A stretch of DNA of 58,558 nucleotides from Candidatus Omnitrophota bacterium (GTDB lineage: Bacteria > Omnitrophota > Gorgyraeia > B26-G9), in NCBI GenBank assembly GCA_018895275.1, contig JAHIOQ010000048.1, forward strand, positions 1 to 58,558, given 5' to 3'. The position numbers and the translations under genes were made by a program. This document shows positions 26,648-34,887 of the stretch, piece after piece. Every line of letters starts with the position of its first letter. Within the stretch, counting starts at the first letter, position 1. Under the pieces are notes generated by a model. That model saw nothing but the letters and a program-made list of their open reading frames with translations, did no database searches and had not been told where the DNA came from.

Positions 26648-26658
26648 GCAAAAAGACT

Positions 26659-26702
26659 ATAACAACAGCCCCTTACCTTTTCGGATAAGGGGCTGTTGTT
26701 AT
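26659..26702 (-). terminator. Strong intrinsic terminator after the giant gene
   Basis: 17-bp perfect stem ATAACAACAGCCCCTTA/TAAGGGGCTGTTGTTAT. Confidence 0.85.
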
Positions 26703-26722
26703 AACTTATTATGCCGCAGCAA

Positions 26723-29700
26723 TTAACCGCCGCCTGTCGAAGTGCTTCTGGTCAAGAAACCATTGAGGTTATACCAATATTTTGTCAATTCTCCGCCTTC
26801 TGCATTAAACTGCTGCGTCTGCCTGCCGCTGTTATCATAAAGAATGTAACCGTTATACGTACCGTCGTTATAGACATTGGTCTTAGTCAGGAATCCATTG
26901 TTGTCATAGAAGTATTGCGACTGCACCGCACCGTCGGTACTATCGGTTTTTACCAACCACGTTTTATCCTGCTGTCCATAGGCGTTGAAATAGGTACGCG
27001 TCGTCTGGTCGTGAGTCCAATCCCCATCCGCAACCGCATTGCCCTGATCGTCGATTTCCTGCATTGTCTGAGTACTCGTTGTAGAGAACAGGAATCCGGA
27101 AGCAGAATATGTATAGTACTGAACTTGTTCCGGATTACCTTGATCATCGAATTTTTCGTTATAGACTGCAATCGGACGCGAATATGAATCATGTTTTACC
27201 CAACTGACCATATTTCCCTCTTTACCGTATGACTCGGAACGATACAATGCGCCGAATTCGTTGTACAAGTTGGCCTGGCTCTTAAATCCGCCGCTGAGCG
27301 TGCCGTCGCTATTTACGCTATAATTTGCCGTACCGCCGGCGCTATACTGGTAATATACGTTATCTTCCGTAGTACCTTTAAAGAGCTGATACGTGGCACC
27401 CGGTTTAGAGAAGGCATCAAATACCGTATACGACGTCTGAACGCCATTCATGTAAGACACGGTCTGGTTTAAAAGTCCCTTATTATTATAGAGGTAGTCG
27501 CTTACCACGGCACCTTTGTGGTTGAGCACCTGGTCCGGCCTTCCCATGGAGTTGAAAACAGTCTTACCGGTTATTACCCCGCCTTCTCCATAGCTGTTTG
27601 ACTCCTGGATAAAGCCCTTAGAACTGTATTTATTCTGTGTAATCAGCACACCCTTTTCATTATAGGTATTTTCCGGCCTGCCGTATTTGTTGTATGTCTG
27701 AGTACCGGATAAGATAACCTCCGTACCGATTTGATCAGCGATCATGTCATTCTGAGTTGCTTCGAGATTAACCGTATACAAGGTCGCGCCGGTCATGAAT
27801 CCGGTTGCCGAACCATCGGTCTTCTGATAGCTGAATACCTGCGAAAGTGATGCATTACCGCTTGCCGATACGTTGAAGGAATCAACCGGCCTTGACTTAG
27901 CGTCATATGTCGTATATCCGGCGACATTGTACCATCCGGTCATTATCGTTCCATCCGTAAGCGTTAGGGTATCTGTGCCCGAACCATCCGTGTCTTCAAT
28001 ATACGTAAGGTTATTGGAACGCTCGAGGAATCCGGCATCATTGTAATTATACGAACTAACCGTCATCCCTTCCGTGTTTGTCGAATACTTCTGTTTTCCC
28101 CAATCGTCATAATGTGTGGTACCGGTTACCGGGCCCTGGGCCTCTGTGCCGGGTTCTCCGTATGTCGTACTTGTCGCCAAGAATCCTGTGAGTGTATACT
28201 GAAAATCCTGTACCAAGGCATTGCGTTCATTATACGCTGCTGTCGGCCTTCCCTGCGCGTTATAGACAGTTTTTCCGGTATATGCCTTATCAATACCGTA
28301 ATTCTTCGATGCAGAGAGGAAGCCGCTTTTGGAATACGAATATGTTGAAACCGATTCGCCTAATTCATTGAAAGAAGTTTCCTGTTGTCCGTATTTATTA
28401 AATGTCGTGTAACCCGTGAACGTCTGCTGATCTCCATAATTGACGGTCATCGACAAAAATCCGGTATTCCTTTGCCCGATATATTGAATATCCGTAGGAA
28501 CTCCGGTTGCGTTGGAGTTATAGATAAATTCCTGAACTTTTGATCCTTGAACTTCTGTCCCATTTTCTATTGCTACCTTTATATTGTTCTCAGATACGGT
28601 GTAAGCGGCAAGCGGCCGGCTTGTTGCATCATATTCCGTATAACCGGTCAACGCGCCGTTATTGCCATAGCTGTTTGCCTGCAGCATAAAGCCGTGCGAA
28701 TCGTACTTATAATCAGCTACCTTTGAGTTTTCCCCATTAGTCTGTAAAGTAGCCCTGCCGAACTCATCATAACTCGTTGTTCCGGTTGGGGTAGGAACTC
28801 CATCCGTAGATTCGCCGTAATTGTAGCTTTCATCCATTTGTCCACTGAAGTCGTTATAATGGAAGGCTTGCACCAATGCTCCTGTTTGGTTGTATGCCTC
28901 CGTCGGACGGCTCAAATCATTGAATACCGTTTTCCCCATATAGGCATTGTCTTCCCCATAGTTATTCGCCGTATACAAGAATCCCTGATTTGAATAGTTG
29001 TATTGGGTTGTCTTTTCTCCGAATTCGTTGTAGTTTATGTTCTGGCGTCCGTATTTATCAAACAGCGTTGTGCCCAAGAGAACAGGAATACCATTGTCAC
29101 CCTTTCTGCCATAATTGGTCGTGCTGATCAAAAATCCGTCCGCATATGTAAATCCCTGGACCATAGCACCTTGTGAAGGATTATCCGCGTCGCCTTGCGT
29201 ATCCCAATAGGTCTGGTATGAGGCGGTCGGACGAGAATTCTCATCAAATGTCGTAAAACCGGTAACCGCATAATATCCGTGCTGAATAACTTTATCATTA
29301 TTCTCTACATCAAGCGCATACTCCCCTGTTGCAGTTGCATCTTCGACAAACGAAAGTGTATTTGTCTGGGTCATAAACCCGCGTTCGTTATACTGATACG
29401 AAGAAATGGCCAAGCCTTTTTCGTTTTCAGCCCTTATCGCCTTACCATAGCCGTCAAACACGGTTTTACCGGTATTCTGCTGATTTCCTCCGTAACTTGT
29501 GCTGCTTTCCATAAAGCCGTACTGGTTATAGTCGAATCGTGATGTAAGGCCCATGCCCGTTTTAACATTACCAACCATGTTGTACGATTCGGTAGGTTTG
29601 CCTTCTTTACTGAAAATCGTCTTGCCTAAGTAAGCCCCACCCGTTCCGTAGTTATTGGTCTGGGATAAAAACCCCTGGCTGGAGTATACATATGAAGATA

Positions 29701-32700
29701 TCTTCTTACCGTATTCATTAAAGGTTGCCTGTTGCCGGCCGTACTTATCAAACTGGGTTTCTCCGGCAGGAGCAGGTGTCCCCTCCGCTCTTATGTCACC
29801 ATAATTAATTGTCTTGGTCATGAACCCGCCTACATACACATATGACTGCACAGTTGTTGCCTGTAAACCAGCCGCCGTACCGTTATCAAACACCGTATAA
29901 GTCTCCGTCGGGCGTGATTTCGCGTCGAAAGCAGTAAACCCTGTCTTTACCTGTTCAGGAAGGCCGGTTTCACCATTAAGGATCACAGTTCCGTTATCAT
30001 CCGTATTTAACCCGTAGGATTCAGACCTTGATAGAAAGCCGCGTTCGTTGTAGACATATGTCTGAACCATTACGTTTTCGGCATTCATAACCTGGTCGGC
30101 TTTTCCGTATTTATCATAAGATGTGGCACCGCTATATGTCGGCATATATTTTGCCGAGCTTGAGAATGTTTTCGAAAAAGCCTGTGCATCTTTATTATCG
30201 ACGTCTCCGTCAACATCGTAATCATATGAGGGGTTATATGATGACATTGCCGCGATAAAACCGGCAGAGCCTTTAAACGAAGACTCGAAAATAGCCACAT
30301 CAGCATCGTTAATCAGGCCGTCATCATTAAAATCATACTCAGCTAAATAAACACCGTCTTTTGCTGAGGATCCGAGTACGGCAGCAAACTTATCTATCTT
30401 ACTCACATCAACTACGGTTGCTTCGTTCCATGATTTACTGCTTTCTAAAAATCCGTCTGCACCGTATTCGAATGTCTGCGTCAATCCTTTCAATGCCGGC
30501 TGCCACAGCGGATTATCCAGATCGCTCTGTATTAAACCACTGTGTAATGCCGCAATAAGATCATCCTTAATAGTTGACGTAGAGCAAAAGGAGTTAAAGC
30601 TTGCCAGCGGCCGAGAGAAGTTATCAAAAACAGTCGTACCGGTTAAAGCCTTATCCTTGCCATAGGTGGTTGACGCCTTAAGGAATCCTTCCAGAGAATA
30701 ATAATACTTCTGCACTAAATTGCCTTCTTCGTTGAGAGTCTCTAACTGGCGGCCGTATTGATCAAAAGTGGTTTCCCCCACTTTTTCTATCTCTCCATTC
30801 TTATTGATATCTCCATAATTAATCGTCTTCTGCACGAAATTAGAGTACTTGGTTTGCAAGACCTTATTGCCGTCGGCATCTTTCACTGTTGCCTGATAGG
30901 AGTAGACATACCCCTGAGATTTTGACGCCACCGCACCGTTTCCGCTTTCGTCATCGAACAATTGATAGGAAGCCATCGGCTTGGAATCGCCGCCGAACAA
31001 TGTATAGCCCGTAACAACCTGTGTATCAACTCCAAGCCCTCCGTCCATTTGCGAAAGCCTGTCAATCGACCAGTCGGTCACTGGTTCCATTAGCCCGGAC
31101 TCTCCAAGGCACACGGCATCGCCAAATTGAGAGGCTTGAATTTTATAGGCGGAAACCGCTGCGGTATTATTACCTTCTCCCTCGAGAATTTGGCCTAACA
31201 TATGGTATGCGGTACCCACATCATTTTCCAGAAATTCGCTGCCGCCCAATGCCTCACTGCTAAATAACTGTATTACCTTTAAAGCGCATTTCGCGGCAAA
31301 TTCCGGATCGCTTTTGAGATACGCCCACATCGCATTCATTAACGAATTGTTACCAAGATCCCCGACTCTAATCATAATCTCCGCATCATAAGAGTCGTCC
31401 CACAATGATGCGATCAAGCCCAGGTCTGCCTGTGTGGAAACAATGACACTGTTGACACCGTCGGCACTGCTTAAATTGTAGCTTTTTACCAGCAGGCCGT
31501 TTTCATCATAGATATATTTCTGTACGAGGCTGCCCGCCTGGTTATAGACATCCGTGGGTTTGCTTTTCGCGTCATACAAAGTTGTTCCTGTAGTGAGGCC
31601 ATTCTCGCCTTTGTTCATGGATTCTTTCAAAAAACCGTCAGTACCATAAATAAATAACTGCGCCACTGCGCCCTGAGCATTAAATGCCTCGGAAGGCCGG
31701 CTGTATTTATCAAATATTGTTTGCCCTGTTCTTTTTCCCTCAAAACCGTAGGAAATCGTATAATCGAGAAACCCCTGCTTATCATATGCATAAGTCTGCT
31801 GTTTCTCCATTACCGTATTTCCATTTACATCCAACACAGGATTGCCCTGATCATCCCGAACAACACCGTATACAGTAGTAGGACGTCCCTTCTTGTCAAA
31901 TTCCGTCTTTGATGTCTGGAAATAAACAAAGTTTCCCTCTGTTACCAGATTCCCGTTCTCATCTATGGGTTTACTGTATGTTTCCAGATTATTTTCATCC
32001 GTGCCGCGTAAAATCCCCAGAGAATATGTCGCATCCAGGACTCCGCTTTCCTTGTAGGTATATTCCTGCTGTTTTACTACGTTGCCGCCATCGCCAATCT
32101 GCCATACCCCTACCGGCCTGCCCTTGGTATCAAATACCGTATACGACACGATTACCTGCTGCGATGTGAACGGATCAATCGCGCCTAAAGACAATGTCTG
32201 TTGTAAAAAACCGCGCTCATTATAAACATATTGCTGAACAAGCGTTGCTTCATGGTTATAACTTCCGGACACTCTTCCATATTCGTCATAATCGGTCCAT
32301 CCGGTTACCACCCCTTTTGCGCCGGTACTGGTGATAGATGCAACATTACCCGCGGCATCATAATTATAGGAACCAACCTGTACAAGCGTTTCTACCGGAT
32401 TGCCGTTTGCATCGAGAACAACCGCTCCGTTAGCATCGACAACATCAACAATGTCATAAATAACCGTAAAATAGCCGTCTTCTACAATCGTAACCTGCTT
32501 TGATATCTGATTGACAACCTGGGTAAGGTGTCCATCGTTATCATAAACATATGTCTGGGTAACCGTACCCTCGGCATTAGTCGTATAAGAGGGGCGAATG
32601 CCATCCATCTCAAAGTGCGTAATATTGCCGTTATGATCGGTAAATGATTCCAGAGCGCCTTTGCTGTTGAATTTATAATCACCAACTTTAACTACATTAC

Positions 32701-33301
32701 CACCGGCATCCGTATACTGAATATAATCCGGCCTGCCCGCATTGTCATATATAGTTTCATTGCCCCAATTGTCAATCGACTTAACAATTCTCAATCCGTC
32801 ACCGGAATATTCGTAGCGGATAGTTCCTTGTCCGATACTTGATGTTTGCTGCCCCATATTAAATTGCTGCGAACGTACAACTTCTCCCGCAGCGTTTAGA
32901 AGCTCTACTACTTGTCCGTTAAGCTGGTAACGATAGGTAAACTTTTCACCGGTATCCGCGTTTTTGATTATAACATTGGCACCGTTAAGCGTATAAGTTA
33001 CTTCCATATTACCCATTTCATTCAGTGATAATTGCGCAGAGGCACCTGTTCCCGAATAGATATATACATCTCCGTTTGAAGTGGTGATAACTTTAGGCGC
33101 CGGAGCAATCGCTTGAGAAAGGTCTCCGGGCTCACTCTGGGCGCCAATCTGTCCGCCAAAGACTCCCTGCAAGACCTCATTCGACATCAACATATCCTGC
33201 TGTGCCTGCAAATCAAAGGCAAAGCCGAGATTTGCTGTCAACATGTTCACTAAAAACGTTACTAGTACAAGATATGAATAAATCCGTATACCTCTCTTCA
33301 T
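26723..33301 (-). CDS. Giant secreted YD/RHS-like repeat protein, 2192 aa, with TPR-like and dockerin-like inserts
   Basis: AGGGG ribosome-binding site; signal peptide (…ANLGFA|FD); about 30 repeats of GxTxFDxxGRPxxxxNxxGxxVQxYxYxxxGFLxxSxxYG. Confidence 0.85.
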   Translation of the reverse strand: MKRGIRIYSYLVLVTFLVNMLTANLGFAFDLQAQQDMLMSNEVLQGVFGGQIGAQSEPGDLSQAIAPAPKVITTSNGDVYIYSGTGASAQLSLNEMGNMEVTYTLNGANVIIKNADTGEKFTYRYQLNGQVVELLNAAGEVVRSQQFNMGQQTSSIGQGTIRYEYSGDGLRIVKSIDNWGNETIYDNAGRPDYIQYTDAGGNVVKVGDYKFNSKGALESFTDHNGNITHFEMDGIRPSYTTNAEGTVTQTYVYDNDGHLTQVVNQISKQVTIVEDGYFTVIYDIVDVVDANGAVVLDANGNPVETLVQVGSYNYDAAGNVASITSTGAKGVVTGWTDYDEYGRVSGSYNHEATLVQQYVYNERGFLQQTLSLGAIDPFTSQQVIVSYTVFDTKGRPVGVWQIGDGGNVVKQQEYTYKESGVLDATYSLGILRGTDENNLETYSKPIDENGNLVTEGNFVYFQTSKTEFDKKGRPTTVYGVVRDDQGNPVLDVNGNTVMEKQQTYAYDKQGFLDYTISYGFEGKRTGQTIFDKYSRPSEAFNAQGAVAQLFIYGTDGFLKESMNKGENGLTTGTTLYDAKSKPTDVYNQAGSLVQKYIYDENGLLVKSYNLSSADGVNSVIVSTQADLGLIASLWDDSYDAEIMIRVGDLGNNSLMNAMWAYLKSDPEFAAKCALKVIQLFSSEALGGSEFLENDVGTAYHMLGQILEGEGNNTAAVSAYKIQASQFGDAVCLGESGLMEPVTDWSIDRLSQMDGGLGVDTQVVTGYTLFGGDSKPMASYQLFDDESGNGAVASKSQGYVYSYQATVKDADGNKVLQTKYSNFVQKTINYGDINKNGEIEKVGETTFDQYGRQLETLNEEGNLVQKYYYSLEGFLKASTTYGKDKALTGTTVFDNFSRPLASFNSFCSTSTIKDDLIAALHSGLIQSDLDNPLWQPALKGLTQTFEYGADGFLESSKSWNEATVVDVSKIDKFAAVLGSSAKDGVYLAEYDFNDDGLINDADVAIFESSFKGSAGFIAAMSSYNPSYDYDVDGDVDNKDAQAFSKTFSSSAKYMPTYSGATSYDKYGKADQVMNAENVMVQTYVYNERGFLSRSESYGLNTDDNGTVILNGETGLPEQVKTGFTAFDAKSRPTETYTVFDNGTAAGLQATTVQSYVYVGGFMTKTINYGDIRAEGTPAPAGETQFDKYGRQQATFNEYGKKISSYVYSSQGFLSQTNNYGTGGAYLGKTIFSKEGKPTESYNMVGNVKTGMGLTSRFDYNQYGFMESSTSYGGNQQNTGKTVFDGYGKAIRAENEKGLAISSYQYNERGFMTQTNTLSFVEDATATGEYALDVENNDKVIQHGYYAVTGFTTFDENSRPTASYQTYWDTQGDADNPSQGAMVQGFTYADGFLISTTNYGRKGDNGIPVLLGTTLFDKYGRQNINYNEFGEKTTQYNYSNQGFLYTANNYGEDNAYMGKTVFNDLSRPTEAYNQTGALVQAFHYNDFSGQMDESYNYGESTDGVPTPTGTTSYDEFGRATLQTNGENSKVADYKYDSHGFMLQANSYGNNGALTGYTEYDATSRPLAAYTVSENNIKVAIENGTEVQGSKVQEFIYNSNATGVPTDIQYIGQRNTGFLSMTVNYGDQQTFTGYTTFNKYGQQETSFNELGESVSTYSYSKSGFLSASKNYGIDKAYTGKTVYNAQGRPTAAYNERNALVQDFQYTLTGFLATSTTYGEPGTEAQGPVTGTTHYDDWGKQKYSTNTEGMTVSSYNYNDAGFLERSNNLTYIEDTDGSGTDTLTLTDGTIMTGWYNVAGYTTYDAKSRPVDSFNVSASGNASLSQVFSYQKTDGSATGFMTGATLYTVNLEATQNDMIADQIGTEVILSGTQTYNKYGRPENTYNEKGVLITQNKYSSKGFIQESNSYGEGGVITGKTVFNSMGRPDQVLNHKGAVVSDYLYNNKGLLNQTVSYMNGVQTSYTVFDAFSKPGATYQLFKGTTEDNVYYQYSAGGTANYSVNSDGTLSGGFKSQANLYNEFGALYRSESYGKEGNMVSWVKHDSYSRPIAVYNEKFDDQGNPEQVQYYTYSASGFLFSTTSTQTMQEIDDQGNAVADGDWTHDQTTRTYFNAYGQQDKTWLVKTDSTDGAVQSQYFYDNNGFLTKTNVYNDGTYNGYILYDNSGRQTQQFNAEGGELTKYWYNLNGFLTRSTSTGGG

Positions 33302-33525
33302 ACTAATCCCCTTTCGTTTAATAATATGTTAAAATGATACGATATAAAAATTCACCCAATAGTCATAAATTACAGATGAGTCCTTTACTAAGCATTTGCC
33401 TTTCATCTTCAACTGCTTTTTCATTCACACCCCCCCTCTTTTTATGCGCTATTTTTACAAGGTATGTATAATGCCTTTTCTATTTTCAATTATACTATTT
33501 AAAAGTTTTTTTAATTCGTACAATA

Positions 33526-33554
33526 AGTATATCATTGAACCATTTAGCTGTCAA
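33526..33554 (-). promoter_or_regulatory. sigma70 promoter (TTGACA-N17-TATACT, TG extension) for the giant gene
   Basis: Minus strand reads TTGACA gctaaatggttcaatga TATACT. Confidence 0.7.
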
Positions 33555-33666
33555 GTTTATACTTTTCTGCTTGGATTAGCCACATGCGCTGTTACTAATT
33601 TTAGGCTAGACTTTTTGGATTGTTTTGGGAAATGATAAATAATCTTAAATAAGGGCAATATAAATA

Positions 33667-34887
33667 TTATAAATTTTGTTGCTTTATGAAACAATCCATT
33701 AGCTCATAGCCGTTACTAAACACTAAGCGGCTTTTCTTAGCTTCATTTTCATTATACCATATAAATTCATCTTTTGCAATACCCGTACCAAATATTAAAA
33801 AACAAACCGGATCAGCGGTATGAGTTCTCAAGCTTATCGGCGTAGGATGGTCAGGCATTAGCAGTATCCTTAAAGGGTCGATTCCCACATTATAAGTATT
33901 TAATACCGTACCAATGACCAAACGATCAAAATTCTCAATAGCCGCAATCTTTGCCCGGACGTCTCCATTGTGCCCTGCTTCATCCGGAGCCTCTACATGA
34001 ATAAACACAAAATCATTCCTTTTCAGGCTATCAAGCGCGTATCTTGCCTTTGCTTCATAATCAGTATCATAATATCCTGTCGCACCCGGTACATCAATAG
34101 GTGTTAATCCGATTGCACGGCCAATTCCTTTTATGAGGTCTACTGCGGAGATTACTGAACCGCTCACCCCGTATTTTTTCCGAAAAGAAGGCAAAACGAT
34201 TTTTTTGCCCTGCCCCCATAGCCAAATCATATTCGCCGGATTTTCTTTTAAATCAATACGCACTAAATTAATTTCATGCTCATTCAATATATCTTTAGAT
34301 TGCTGCATAATACCGAGAATTTCCGTGCAGGCCTTTCCCTGCGGCAAACAATCCGCGATTTTTTTGCCCATTATGTCGTGCGGCGGATAACATTTCAGTT
34401 TAAGCAGTTCTTCCGAGGCATCATTAATAACCATCAGATGCCGGTAACTGACCCCAGGGTAGAAACGTATTGTTTTATCCGGAATACGCCGATTCAATAC
34501 CTTTATGAGAACCTGTGCCTCTTTCGTGGAGATGTGCCCTGCGCTATAATCAATAAGCAGACCGTTTTCTTCGGTAATAAAATTACACCGGAAAGCGATA
34601 TCCTTCTCACCTAACTCCACTCCGAGATTTATCGCTTCCAGGGGAGCCCTTCCGGAAAAATACTTTTCCGGATCATAACCGAATATCGCAAGATTAGCCA
34701 CATCGCTACCCGGCGTCATTCCTTTAGGCACAAAAGAAGCCGTTCCGATCTTACCGTTTTGAGCTAAAAAATCCATATTCGGCGTTCTCGCCACTTCCAG
34801 AGGAGTGCGGTTGCCCAATTCCTCCAATGGATAATCAGCCATCCCGTCAGGTACAAAAACAATATACTTCATTGCTTGTTTTTTCAT
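33667..34887 (-). CDS. apgM: Cofactor-independent phosphoglycerate mutase family protein (archaeal ApgM type; proposed homoserine kinase subfamily)
   Basis: DGMAD.P, GSDVANL, SYRHL, HVEAPDEAGH and PDHPTP; directly follows hom-thrC. Confidence 0.85.
   Translation of the reverse strand: MKKQAMKYIVFVPDGMADYPLEELGNRTPLEVARTPNMDFLAQNGKIGTASFVPKGMTPGSDVANLAIFGYDPEKYFSGRAPLEAINLGVELGEKDIAFRCNFITEENGLLIDYSAGHISTKEAQVLIKVLNRRIPDKTIRFYPGVSYRHLMVINDASEELLKLKCYPPHDIMGKKIADCLPQGKACTEILGIMQQSKDILNEHEINLVRIDLKENPANMIWLWGQGKKIVLPSFRKKYGVSGSVISAVDLIKGIGRAIGLTPIDVPGATGYYDTDYEAKARYALDSLKRNDFVFIHVEAPDEAGHNGDVRAKIAAIENFDRLVIGTVLNTYNVGIDPLRILLMPDHPTPISLRTHTADPVCFLIFGTGIAKDEFIWYNENEAKKSRLVFSNGYELMDCFIKQQNL

Follow-up and report, generated by a model that had tools for sequence, protein, structure and literature searches.

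Analysis of the 58,558-nt contig JAHIOQ010000048.1 from Candidatus Omnitrophota bacterium (assembly GCA_018895275.1), which as a whole is referred to here as the window, revealed a single open reading frame (ORF) at positions 26723-33301 of the reverse strand that comprises 2192 codons plus stop and encodes a stand-alone protein of 2192 aa, hereafter called the giant protein. It is built on a regular array of YD-like hairpin repeats, carries an N-terminal signal peptide and lacks the hallmarks of a polymorphic toxin, while the leaders of most related genes contain a cyclic di-GMP (c-di-GMP) riboswitch. With a probability of roughly 0.55, we favor the reading that the giant protein is a toxin-free, Sec-exported YD-repeat protein which serves as a scaffold for attachment, contact, matrix formation or surface display, and which in relatives would be switched on by c-di-GMP.

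A regular YD-type repeat array

Inspection of the repeats revealed two alternating half-motifs. The A half-motif, [FY][DN]xxG[RK]x (consensus tGxTxFDxxG(R/K)P), was counted 28 times. For the B half-motif (consensus vQxYxYxxxGF(L/M)), the strict form YxYxxxGFL was counted 22 times, and a strict GF[LMI] motif 23 times. From A to B the distance is 20 residues and from B to the next A 26 residues, which together make a double unit of 46 aa, each half of which resembles the canonical YD motif. A hidden Markov model (HMM) of this unit gave 38 whole or partial matches, corresponding to about 30 units. The initial annotation of this DNA, made from the letters alone, had likewise counted about 30 repeats; however, its minimal unit of 38-40 aa has to be replaced by one of 46 aa, as half-motif spacing and the autocorrelation of the protein, which peaks at 46 aa and again at 220-230 aa, both indicate. 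The second periodicity reflects a super-repeat of four units (~225 aa, range 220-236 aa): unit-to-unit identity is highest at lags of 4, 8 and 12 units (0.43 versus 0.27-0.33), and the C-terminal half therefore consists of about five such four-unit super-repeats. Units share 57% identity with their positional orthologues in 17 other genomes but only 32% with other units of the same protein, from which we concluded that the array is old and fixed and does not represent a variable-number repeat.

For structure prediction, AlphaFold2 was run on two halves of the protein using alignments of 12-13 orthologues. The N-terminal half (residues 29-1200) was modelled with a mean pLDDT of 77.6 and a pTM of 0.73, and the C-terminal half (residues 1050-2192) with a mean pLDDT of 84.4 and a pTM of 0.76, the latter containing 84 strands. 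Together, the two models hold about 140 beta-strands at about 12 residues per strand plus turn, and their pTM values would argue against a floppy, flat ribbon. When both halves were compared with the PDB using Foldseek, the top ~45 matches were all Rhs, teneurin, bacterial teneurin-like, TcB/TcC or SGS1 shells (E values of 1e-27 to 1e-31), and no adhesin beta-solenoid was found among the top matches. Because YD shells alone occupy these ranks, the fold class of the modelled protein can be regarded as settled, namely as a YD sheet of the Rhs/teneurin/Tc type. This bears out part of the initial annotation, which had proposed to compare fragment models with RHS/teneurin shells and had named a known adhesin beta-solenoid as the contrary outcome. 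A comparison with viral models returned MORN-type hairpin repeats alone, at low TM, and is not informative on shape. In our proposal, the about 140 strands in about 30 double-hairpin units would form one continuous antiparallel sheet and thereby a rigid scaffold.

This scaffold would carry modules on its outside, a TPR-like helical domain and a calcium-binding dockerin-like module. The helical insert is kept in all orthologues and shows weak similarity to TPR_8 and MamA (in Pfam and in a comparison of the insert profile with the PDB) as well as to designed repeats; an identity firmer than 'TPR-like' was rejected, since the Pfam and PDB profile matches are weak throughout. A further, short helical loop insert of 34 aa lies at about aa 906-939 within the second hairpin array. 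In the dockerin-like module, two loops fit the 12-residue calcium pattern D-x-[DN]-x-D-G-x-[IV]-[DN]-x-x-D, and each is followed by a helix in the AlphaFold2 model. The Dockerin_1 model scores 18.1-19.9 bits on the giant protein against a cut-off of 22.9 and matches 10 of 18 orthologues (best 1.8e-6), whereas the most distant orthologue (locus L013) lacks the module and about 8 of the 18 have a truncated second loop. How much the hairpins tolerate is seen in a distant member of 2981 aa (protein P0021, locus L018, 6001-14946), in which an insert of 947 aa (aa 1576-2522), made of about nine ~104-aa repeats without a Pfam match, separates the YxY part of one hairpin from its GFL part, at the hairpin tip; loops of this family accept large inserts.

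The genome to which the window belongs contains one cohesin ORF with a PEP-CTERM-like tail, adjoining a dockerin-bearing gene. It encodes 230 aa with a signal peptide and a cohesin domain (27.4 versus 24.1 bits) at L017 (G000:C24:107428-110787) and lies directly downstream of a gene whose product carries an evident dockerin-like pair at its end (GGDANNDNYV...ADFNADGFV...); next to these is a secretin-like ORF. Tethering through dockerin and cohesin was considered as a general anchoring mechanism and rejected, because cohesin was detectable in only 3 of 17 genomes of the family, compared with 16 of 17 for the giant gene.

Export signal and lack of toxin features

The N-terminus, MKRGIRIYSYLVLVTFLVNMLTANLGFA followed by FD in the mature protein, is a signal of the Sec/signal peptidase I type with a GFA/FD cleavage site, and the orthologues keep AxA-type sites at the equivalent position. 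On a plain reading of these residues, the protein is predicted to be exported via Sec and processed by signal peptidase I. The mature N-terminal segment that follows contains two short helices (DMLMSxEVIQGVFGG) and the motif IAP(P/A)PxVITTSNGD.

At the level of sequence families, the relationship to Rhs proteins is marginal to clear. Pfam RHS_repeat (PF05593) reaches 21.8 bits on the giant protein against a cut-off of 22 and matches 11 of 18 orthologues (best 8e-17), while PF03527 is weak and found in only 2 of the 18. Searching NCBIfam with the whole sequence gave no family at E <= 1, and neither its YD model nor its Rhs core matched; a sequence search of the PDB returned dockerin fragments alone (E > 0.1), and Pfam gave no match to NHL, TEN_YD-shell or Tox-GHH, the secondary structure outside the repeats being helical. 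The initial annotation had described the repeats as atypical with respect to standard RHS_repeat, which holds for the lack of a normal Rhs core but less so for the repeats themselves, given the borderline score here and the matches among orthologues.

No feature of a toxin came to light. A regular expression for P....DP.G found no occurrence in the giant protein, and YD units extend to its last residues, with a C-terminus (...YWYNLNGFLTRSTSTGGG) that is conserved among the orthologues. Neither a C-terminal toxin nor an immunity gene was found, the next gene being kdsA beyond the terminator, and VgrG, PAAR and immunity genes are missing among the window neighbours of the giant gene. In the 89%-complete genome, searches for PAAR and for the sheath protein TssC/VipB of type VI secretion systems (T6SS) were negative; TcA families were not searched. 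The initial picture of a Sec-exported, stand-alone, toxin-less YD/RHS-like protein with a signal peptide, its own promoter and its own terminator, and devoid of DPxG motif, toxin tip, immunity gene, VgrG and PAAR, was therefore upheld.

A family-specific core gene

Twenty full-length orthologues of 2115-2303 aa were identified, all from Omnitrophota metagenome-assembled genomes, with 44-53% identity and hundreds of invariant columns in their alignment. Of the 17 genomes in its GTDB family, 16 carry the gene, which is single-copy in the window genome and is found in 12/12 high-quality genomes and 12/12 genera; among 301 genomes sampled across the phylum it is restricted to members of the same family. 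A profile of the C-terminal half, searched against 1.84 billion representative proteins, gave 38 matches at E <= 1e-3 and 14 (clusters) at E <= 1e-30, the weakest being ordinary RHS_repeat proteins. Few matches with such a tail suggest an isolated and very diverged branch of the YD superfamily; the distribution, for which the initial annotation had proposed a search with a repeat HMM, is nearly confined to one Omnitrophota family.

Throughout 13 loci taken from GTDB species representatives, the order apgM, giant gene, kdsA-kdsD-kdsC-lptB is invariant. The distant member L018 keeps the apgM side of this arrangement and has lost the kdsA side, and a functional coupling to the kdsA-lptB cluster was rejected on account of this lost linkage. 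The lack of toxin features, the behaviour as a core gene, the positional orthology of the units and the tolerance of inserts together rule out a classical polymorphic toxin.

A c-di-GMP riboswitch in related leaders

Examination of the upstream regions revealed a c-di-GMP-I riboswitch in the leader of 10 out of 12 related loci. Within the family, Rfam models RF01051 or RF03167 score above the gathering threshold in 9 of the 10 loci with upstream sequence, and the leader of L018 also carries a c-di-GMP-I riboswitch (36.7 versus 35 bits). At L008 (9681-9802), the variant c-di-GMP-I-GGC model (RF03167, 67.9 bits) scores above RF01051, and ligand specificity may therefore differ within the family. 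In 8 of 9 family loci, a hairpin terminator (-12 to -24 kcal/mol) with a U run lies behind the aptamer, and the 5' arm of the hairpin is the 3' strand of the aptamer. Because both structures share this strand, ligand binding should block termination, and the riboswitch of the relatives is predicted from its sequence to be of the ON type. The ancestral state of the family would then be one in which c-di-GMP switches the gene on through a class-I riboswitch whose aptamer competes with a terminator.

The window copy differs in this respect. Positions 33200-33800 gave no Rfam match at E <= 1, so that the aptamer is absent from the window leader, and no terminator-like site was found there. The leader is about 150-180 nt shorter than in relatives, while promoter, early leader, small ORF and ribosome-binding site are kept. 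From the shortened leader without Rfam match and terminator, we concluded that the switch has been lost in the window copy, as well as in the most distant orthologue, L013. With the aptamer-terminator module missing, the window copy is probably expressed without riboswitch control. The window genome nevertheless continues to make broad use of c-di-GMP: it encodes about 16 GGDEF genes and holds another c-di-GMP-I riboswitch (L015, G000:C4:66545-66628, +; 38.6 bits, above the cut-off), flanked by a GspF/PilC-like platform gene on one side and, on the other, by two genes whose N-termini resemble those of type-IV pilins (GFTLVE...).

ON-type c-di-GMP riboswitches control adhesins in other bacteria, such as CbpA of Bacillus thuringiensis (PMC7423583) and surface proteins of Clostridioides difficile (PMC6200980). 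The ancestral control proposed here follows the pattern of known adhesins and pili and points to a conditional role at the surface, in attachment or in the matrix; the presence of the riboswitch in 10 of the 12 related leaders lends indirect support to the adhesion or contact idea. As in these systems, a class-I aptamer with a competing terminator precedes a large secreted-protein gene in the orthologues. Unlike in cbpA-type systems, control is exerted over a YD-repeat protein instead of a collagen-binding or LPXTG adhesin, and the window copy has no aptamer.

Comparison with known YD proteins

Foldseek ranked Rhs effectors of T6SS (RhsA 7q97, Tse5 8cp6, Tse15 8uy4, RhsP 8h8a) highest, at E 1e-27 to 1e-31, and YD-type hairpins are shared with them. 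In contrast to Rhs toxins, the giant protein has a Sec signal and lacks Rhs core, DPxG autoprotease, C-terminal toxin, immunity gene, PAAR, VgrG and T6SS; it further differs in its regular 46-aa unit and four-unit super-repeat, with a TM to Rhs effectors of <= 0.13, and in being encoded by a syntenic core gene rather than by a variable island gene. The Rhs cocoon has roughly 80-90 strands, compared with about 140 in the giant protein. Strong matches were also obtained for the TcB-TcC cocoon of Tc toxins (4o9x, 4igl, 6h6e), which is of similar size, a YD sheet of about 2100-2200 aa with inserted domains. However, the giant protein has no beta-propeller gate, SpvB/TcdB mid domains, hypervariable toxin region or TcA partner, and carries TPR-like and dockerin-like inserts instead.

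Teneurins and bacterial teneurin-like proteins (6fb3, 8r51, 9ifo) are likewise YD shells with extra domains, although FN-plug, NHL propeller, ABD and Tox-GHH domains were not detected in the giant protein. To our knowledge, the fold is used for adhesion by animal teneurins only. In these, the YD shell serves cell-cell adhesion instead of killing, and the metazoan forms release no toxin (PMC13018210). In bacterial teneurin-like proteins, on the other hand, a toxin is enclosed and immunity genes are present (PMC13018210), neither of which was found for the giant protein, and all characterised bacterial YD shells (Rhs, TcB/TcC, teneurin-like) enclose a toxin (PMC13018210, PMC8765631).

Within the same phylum, antiparallel beta-helix 'tubules' have been predicted in giant Omnitrophota proteins and likened to RHS repeats by the authors (West-Roberts et al. 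2023, bioRxiv 10.1101/2023.11.21.568195); that protein class also includes dockerin modules. Such tubule proteins share long, regular arrays of antiparallel hairpins with the giant protein. The tubules form part of proteins of >30,000 aa that are anchored in the membrane and bear regular helices on their exterior, whereas the giant protein is a stand-alone, family-core protein of 2192 aa. Within the paper library searched in full text, nothing was retrieved on stand-alone YD proteins of Omnitrophota, and term look-ups in two Omnitrophota preprints gave no description of the present 2.2-kaa family. If our reading is true, bacteria would also use the YD fold as a scaffold or adhesin and not for toxin packaging alone, the giant protein would be a family-specific candidate for the attachment of uncultured Omnitrophota to surfaces or partner cells, and the natural loss of the riboswitch in the window genome would allow regulated and unregulated versions of one gene to be compared.

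Favored reading and alternatives

According to the favored reading, the giant protein would be located in the envelope or at the surface and act as a scaffold for attachment, contact or matrix without delivering a toxin. Several findings weigh against it. TM values to YD shells are 0.10-0.19 at an rmsd of about 30 A, so that the sheet may either close into a cocoon or wind into a narrower, regular tube. Apart from the signal peptide, no direct sign of localisation was found, and neither an outer-membrane anchor or sorting signal nor a dedicated secretion gene adjoins. The dockerin-like module has no consistent cohesin partner in the family, and adhesion is deduced from the regulation of relatives, while the window copy itself is without the riboswitch. 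A more far-reaching version, which we put forward tentatively and consider rather doubtful, would have the family represent a cargo-free class of YD proteins that, instead of a cocoon, wind into a long, regular and hollow tube or spiral, each four-unit super-repeat of ~225 aa making one turn, an attachment device triggered by c-di-GMP and displaying TPR-, dockerin- or Ig-like modules in one lineage of small-genome, possibly host-dependent Omnitrophota, with the window genome as a constitutive natural variant.

In size, the protein comes near the TcB-TcC fusions that Foldseek also matched (2082-2146 aa), and the characterised bacterial YD shells all enclose a polypeptide (PMC13018210, PMC8765631). 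The giant protein could hence be a closed YD cocoon, that is, a container or delivery capsule around its own N-terminal 90 residues, an insert or a separate cargo; the mature N-terminus is conserved yet modelled at low confidence, and pTM values of 0.73-0.76 would suit a compact, self-contacting fold better than a flat ribbon. We nevertheless regard such a capsule as unlikely, since an aspartyl-protease core, a DPxG motif and a C-terminal extension are all lacking, and no A-component, PAAR or T6SS was found (the genome was searched for PAAR and VipB/TssC, TcA families were not searched). Moreover, the inserts are well folded and one site takes 947 aa in L018, which is hard to fit into a cavity, and the TM to every cocoon is <= 0.19.

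The position of the gene immediately upstream of kdsA-kdsD-kdsC-lptB in 13/13 family loci would instead suggest a family-specific girder of the envelope, periplasmic or associated with the outer membrane and tied to the biogenesis of lipopolysaccharide and outer membrane. A single-copy core gene and a Sec signal without any evident signal for translocation across the outer membrane would agree with this, but the synteny of a single family may reflect relatedness alone, the gene has its own promoter and strong terminator, and L018 keeps the riboswitch while its linkage to the kdsA side is lost. As control by a second-messenger riboswitch is also more in keeping with a conditional function at the surface than with a constitutive, structural role, we consider the girder quite improbable. 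That Rhs-type repeats occur without core or toxin might finally indicate an Rhs polymorphic toxin in decay, stripped of core and toxin tip and with no particular function. This idea, already disfavored by the core-gene behaviour, is hardly credible and effectively refuted by conservation: the full-length frame is intact in about 20 genomes at 44-53% identity with hundreds of invariant columns, the repeats are positionally orthologous, and regulation and synteny are conserved.

Features of the locus and further observations

The coordinates of all features are collected in Table 1. Downstream of the giant gene, the window contains the housekeeping genes kdsA, kdsD, kdsC and lptB, and upstream apgM, thrC, hom and a PilZ gene, likewise housekeeping. 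The promoter and the early leader align in orthologous loci.

Table 1 Features of the giant gene and its product in the window (positions of the forward strand).
Feature	Position	Strand	Description
Sigma-70-type promoter	33526..33554	-	TTGACA-17-TGnTATACT, 11/12 positions matched; about 220 nt upstream of the giant gene
Leader small ORF	33329..33424	-	31 codons, MKKQLKMKGKCLVKDSSVIYDYWVNFYIVSF; preceded by a strong Shine-Dalgarno sequence
Ribosome-binding site of the giant gene	33307..33315	-	GAAAGGGGA
Giant gene	26723..33301	-	ORF of 2192 codons + stop; twenty full-length orthologues
Signal peptide, aa 1-28	33218..33301	-	Read from sequence; basic n-region and hydrophobic core, cleavage after GFA
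Mature N-terminal segment, aa 29-116	32954..33217	-	pLDDT <50 for model residues 1-88; conserved in orthologues
YD-like hairpin array I, aa 117-619	31445..32953	-	First units degenerate, then regular 46-aa units
TPR-like all-helical insert, aa ~620-755	31037..31444	-	AlphaFold2 helices at model residues 596-723, pLDDT about 90
YD-like hairpin array II, aa 756-960	30422..31036	-	Contains the 34-aa helical loop insert
Dockerin-like module, aa ~961-1049	30155..30421	-	Two EF-hand-type loops; sub-threshold Dockerin_1 match
Dockerin-like loop 1, aa 990-1001	30299..30334	-	DFNDDGLINDAD
Dockerin-like loop 2, aa 1027-1038	30188..30223	-	DYDVDGDVDNKD
YD-like hairpin array III, aa 1050-2192	26726..30154	-	About five 4-unit super-repeats, up to the C-terminus
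Intrinsic terminator of the giant gene	26658..26703	-	20-pair stem then T run, 3' of the stop

The small ORF in the leader has counterparts at L002 (9882-9989) and at equivalent places in L003, L005, L008, L009 and L010, with lengths of 11-56 codons. Most orthologous leaders keep both its placement and a GGAGG-type Shine-Dalgarno sequence directly in front of it, while the peptide sequence is variable; in relatives, the riboswitch terminator precedes it and the giant gene follows. After a basic N-terminus, the peptides continue with a stretch in which F, Y, I and L abound. The ORF may be translated as a leader, may serve to load ribosomes or may have arisen by chance.

Among the orthologues, the one at L011 (10001-16774) has an in-frame stop after codon 1425 and that on contig G307:C62 one TAA inside the match, for both of which a pseudogene or an assembly error is possible. 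One family genome has, on a contig apart from its full-length gene, a second, partial copy of the C-terminal half (G310:C84:12658-15042, open frame of 925 aa). At L018, apgM and the riboswitch are separated by a cstA-like gene. Finally, a tRNA gene that scores an identical 58.2 bits throughout is conserved between gpsA and the PilZ gene in all related loci, at L002 (5347-5421) and in the same place in nine others.

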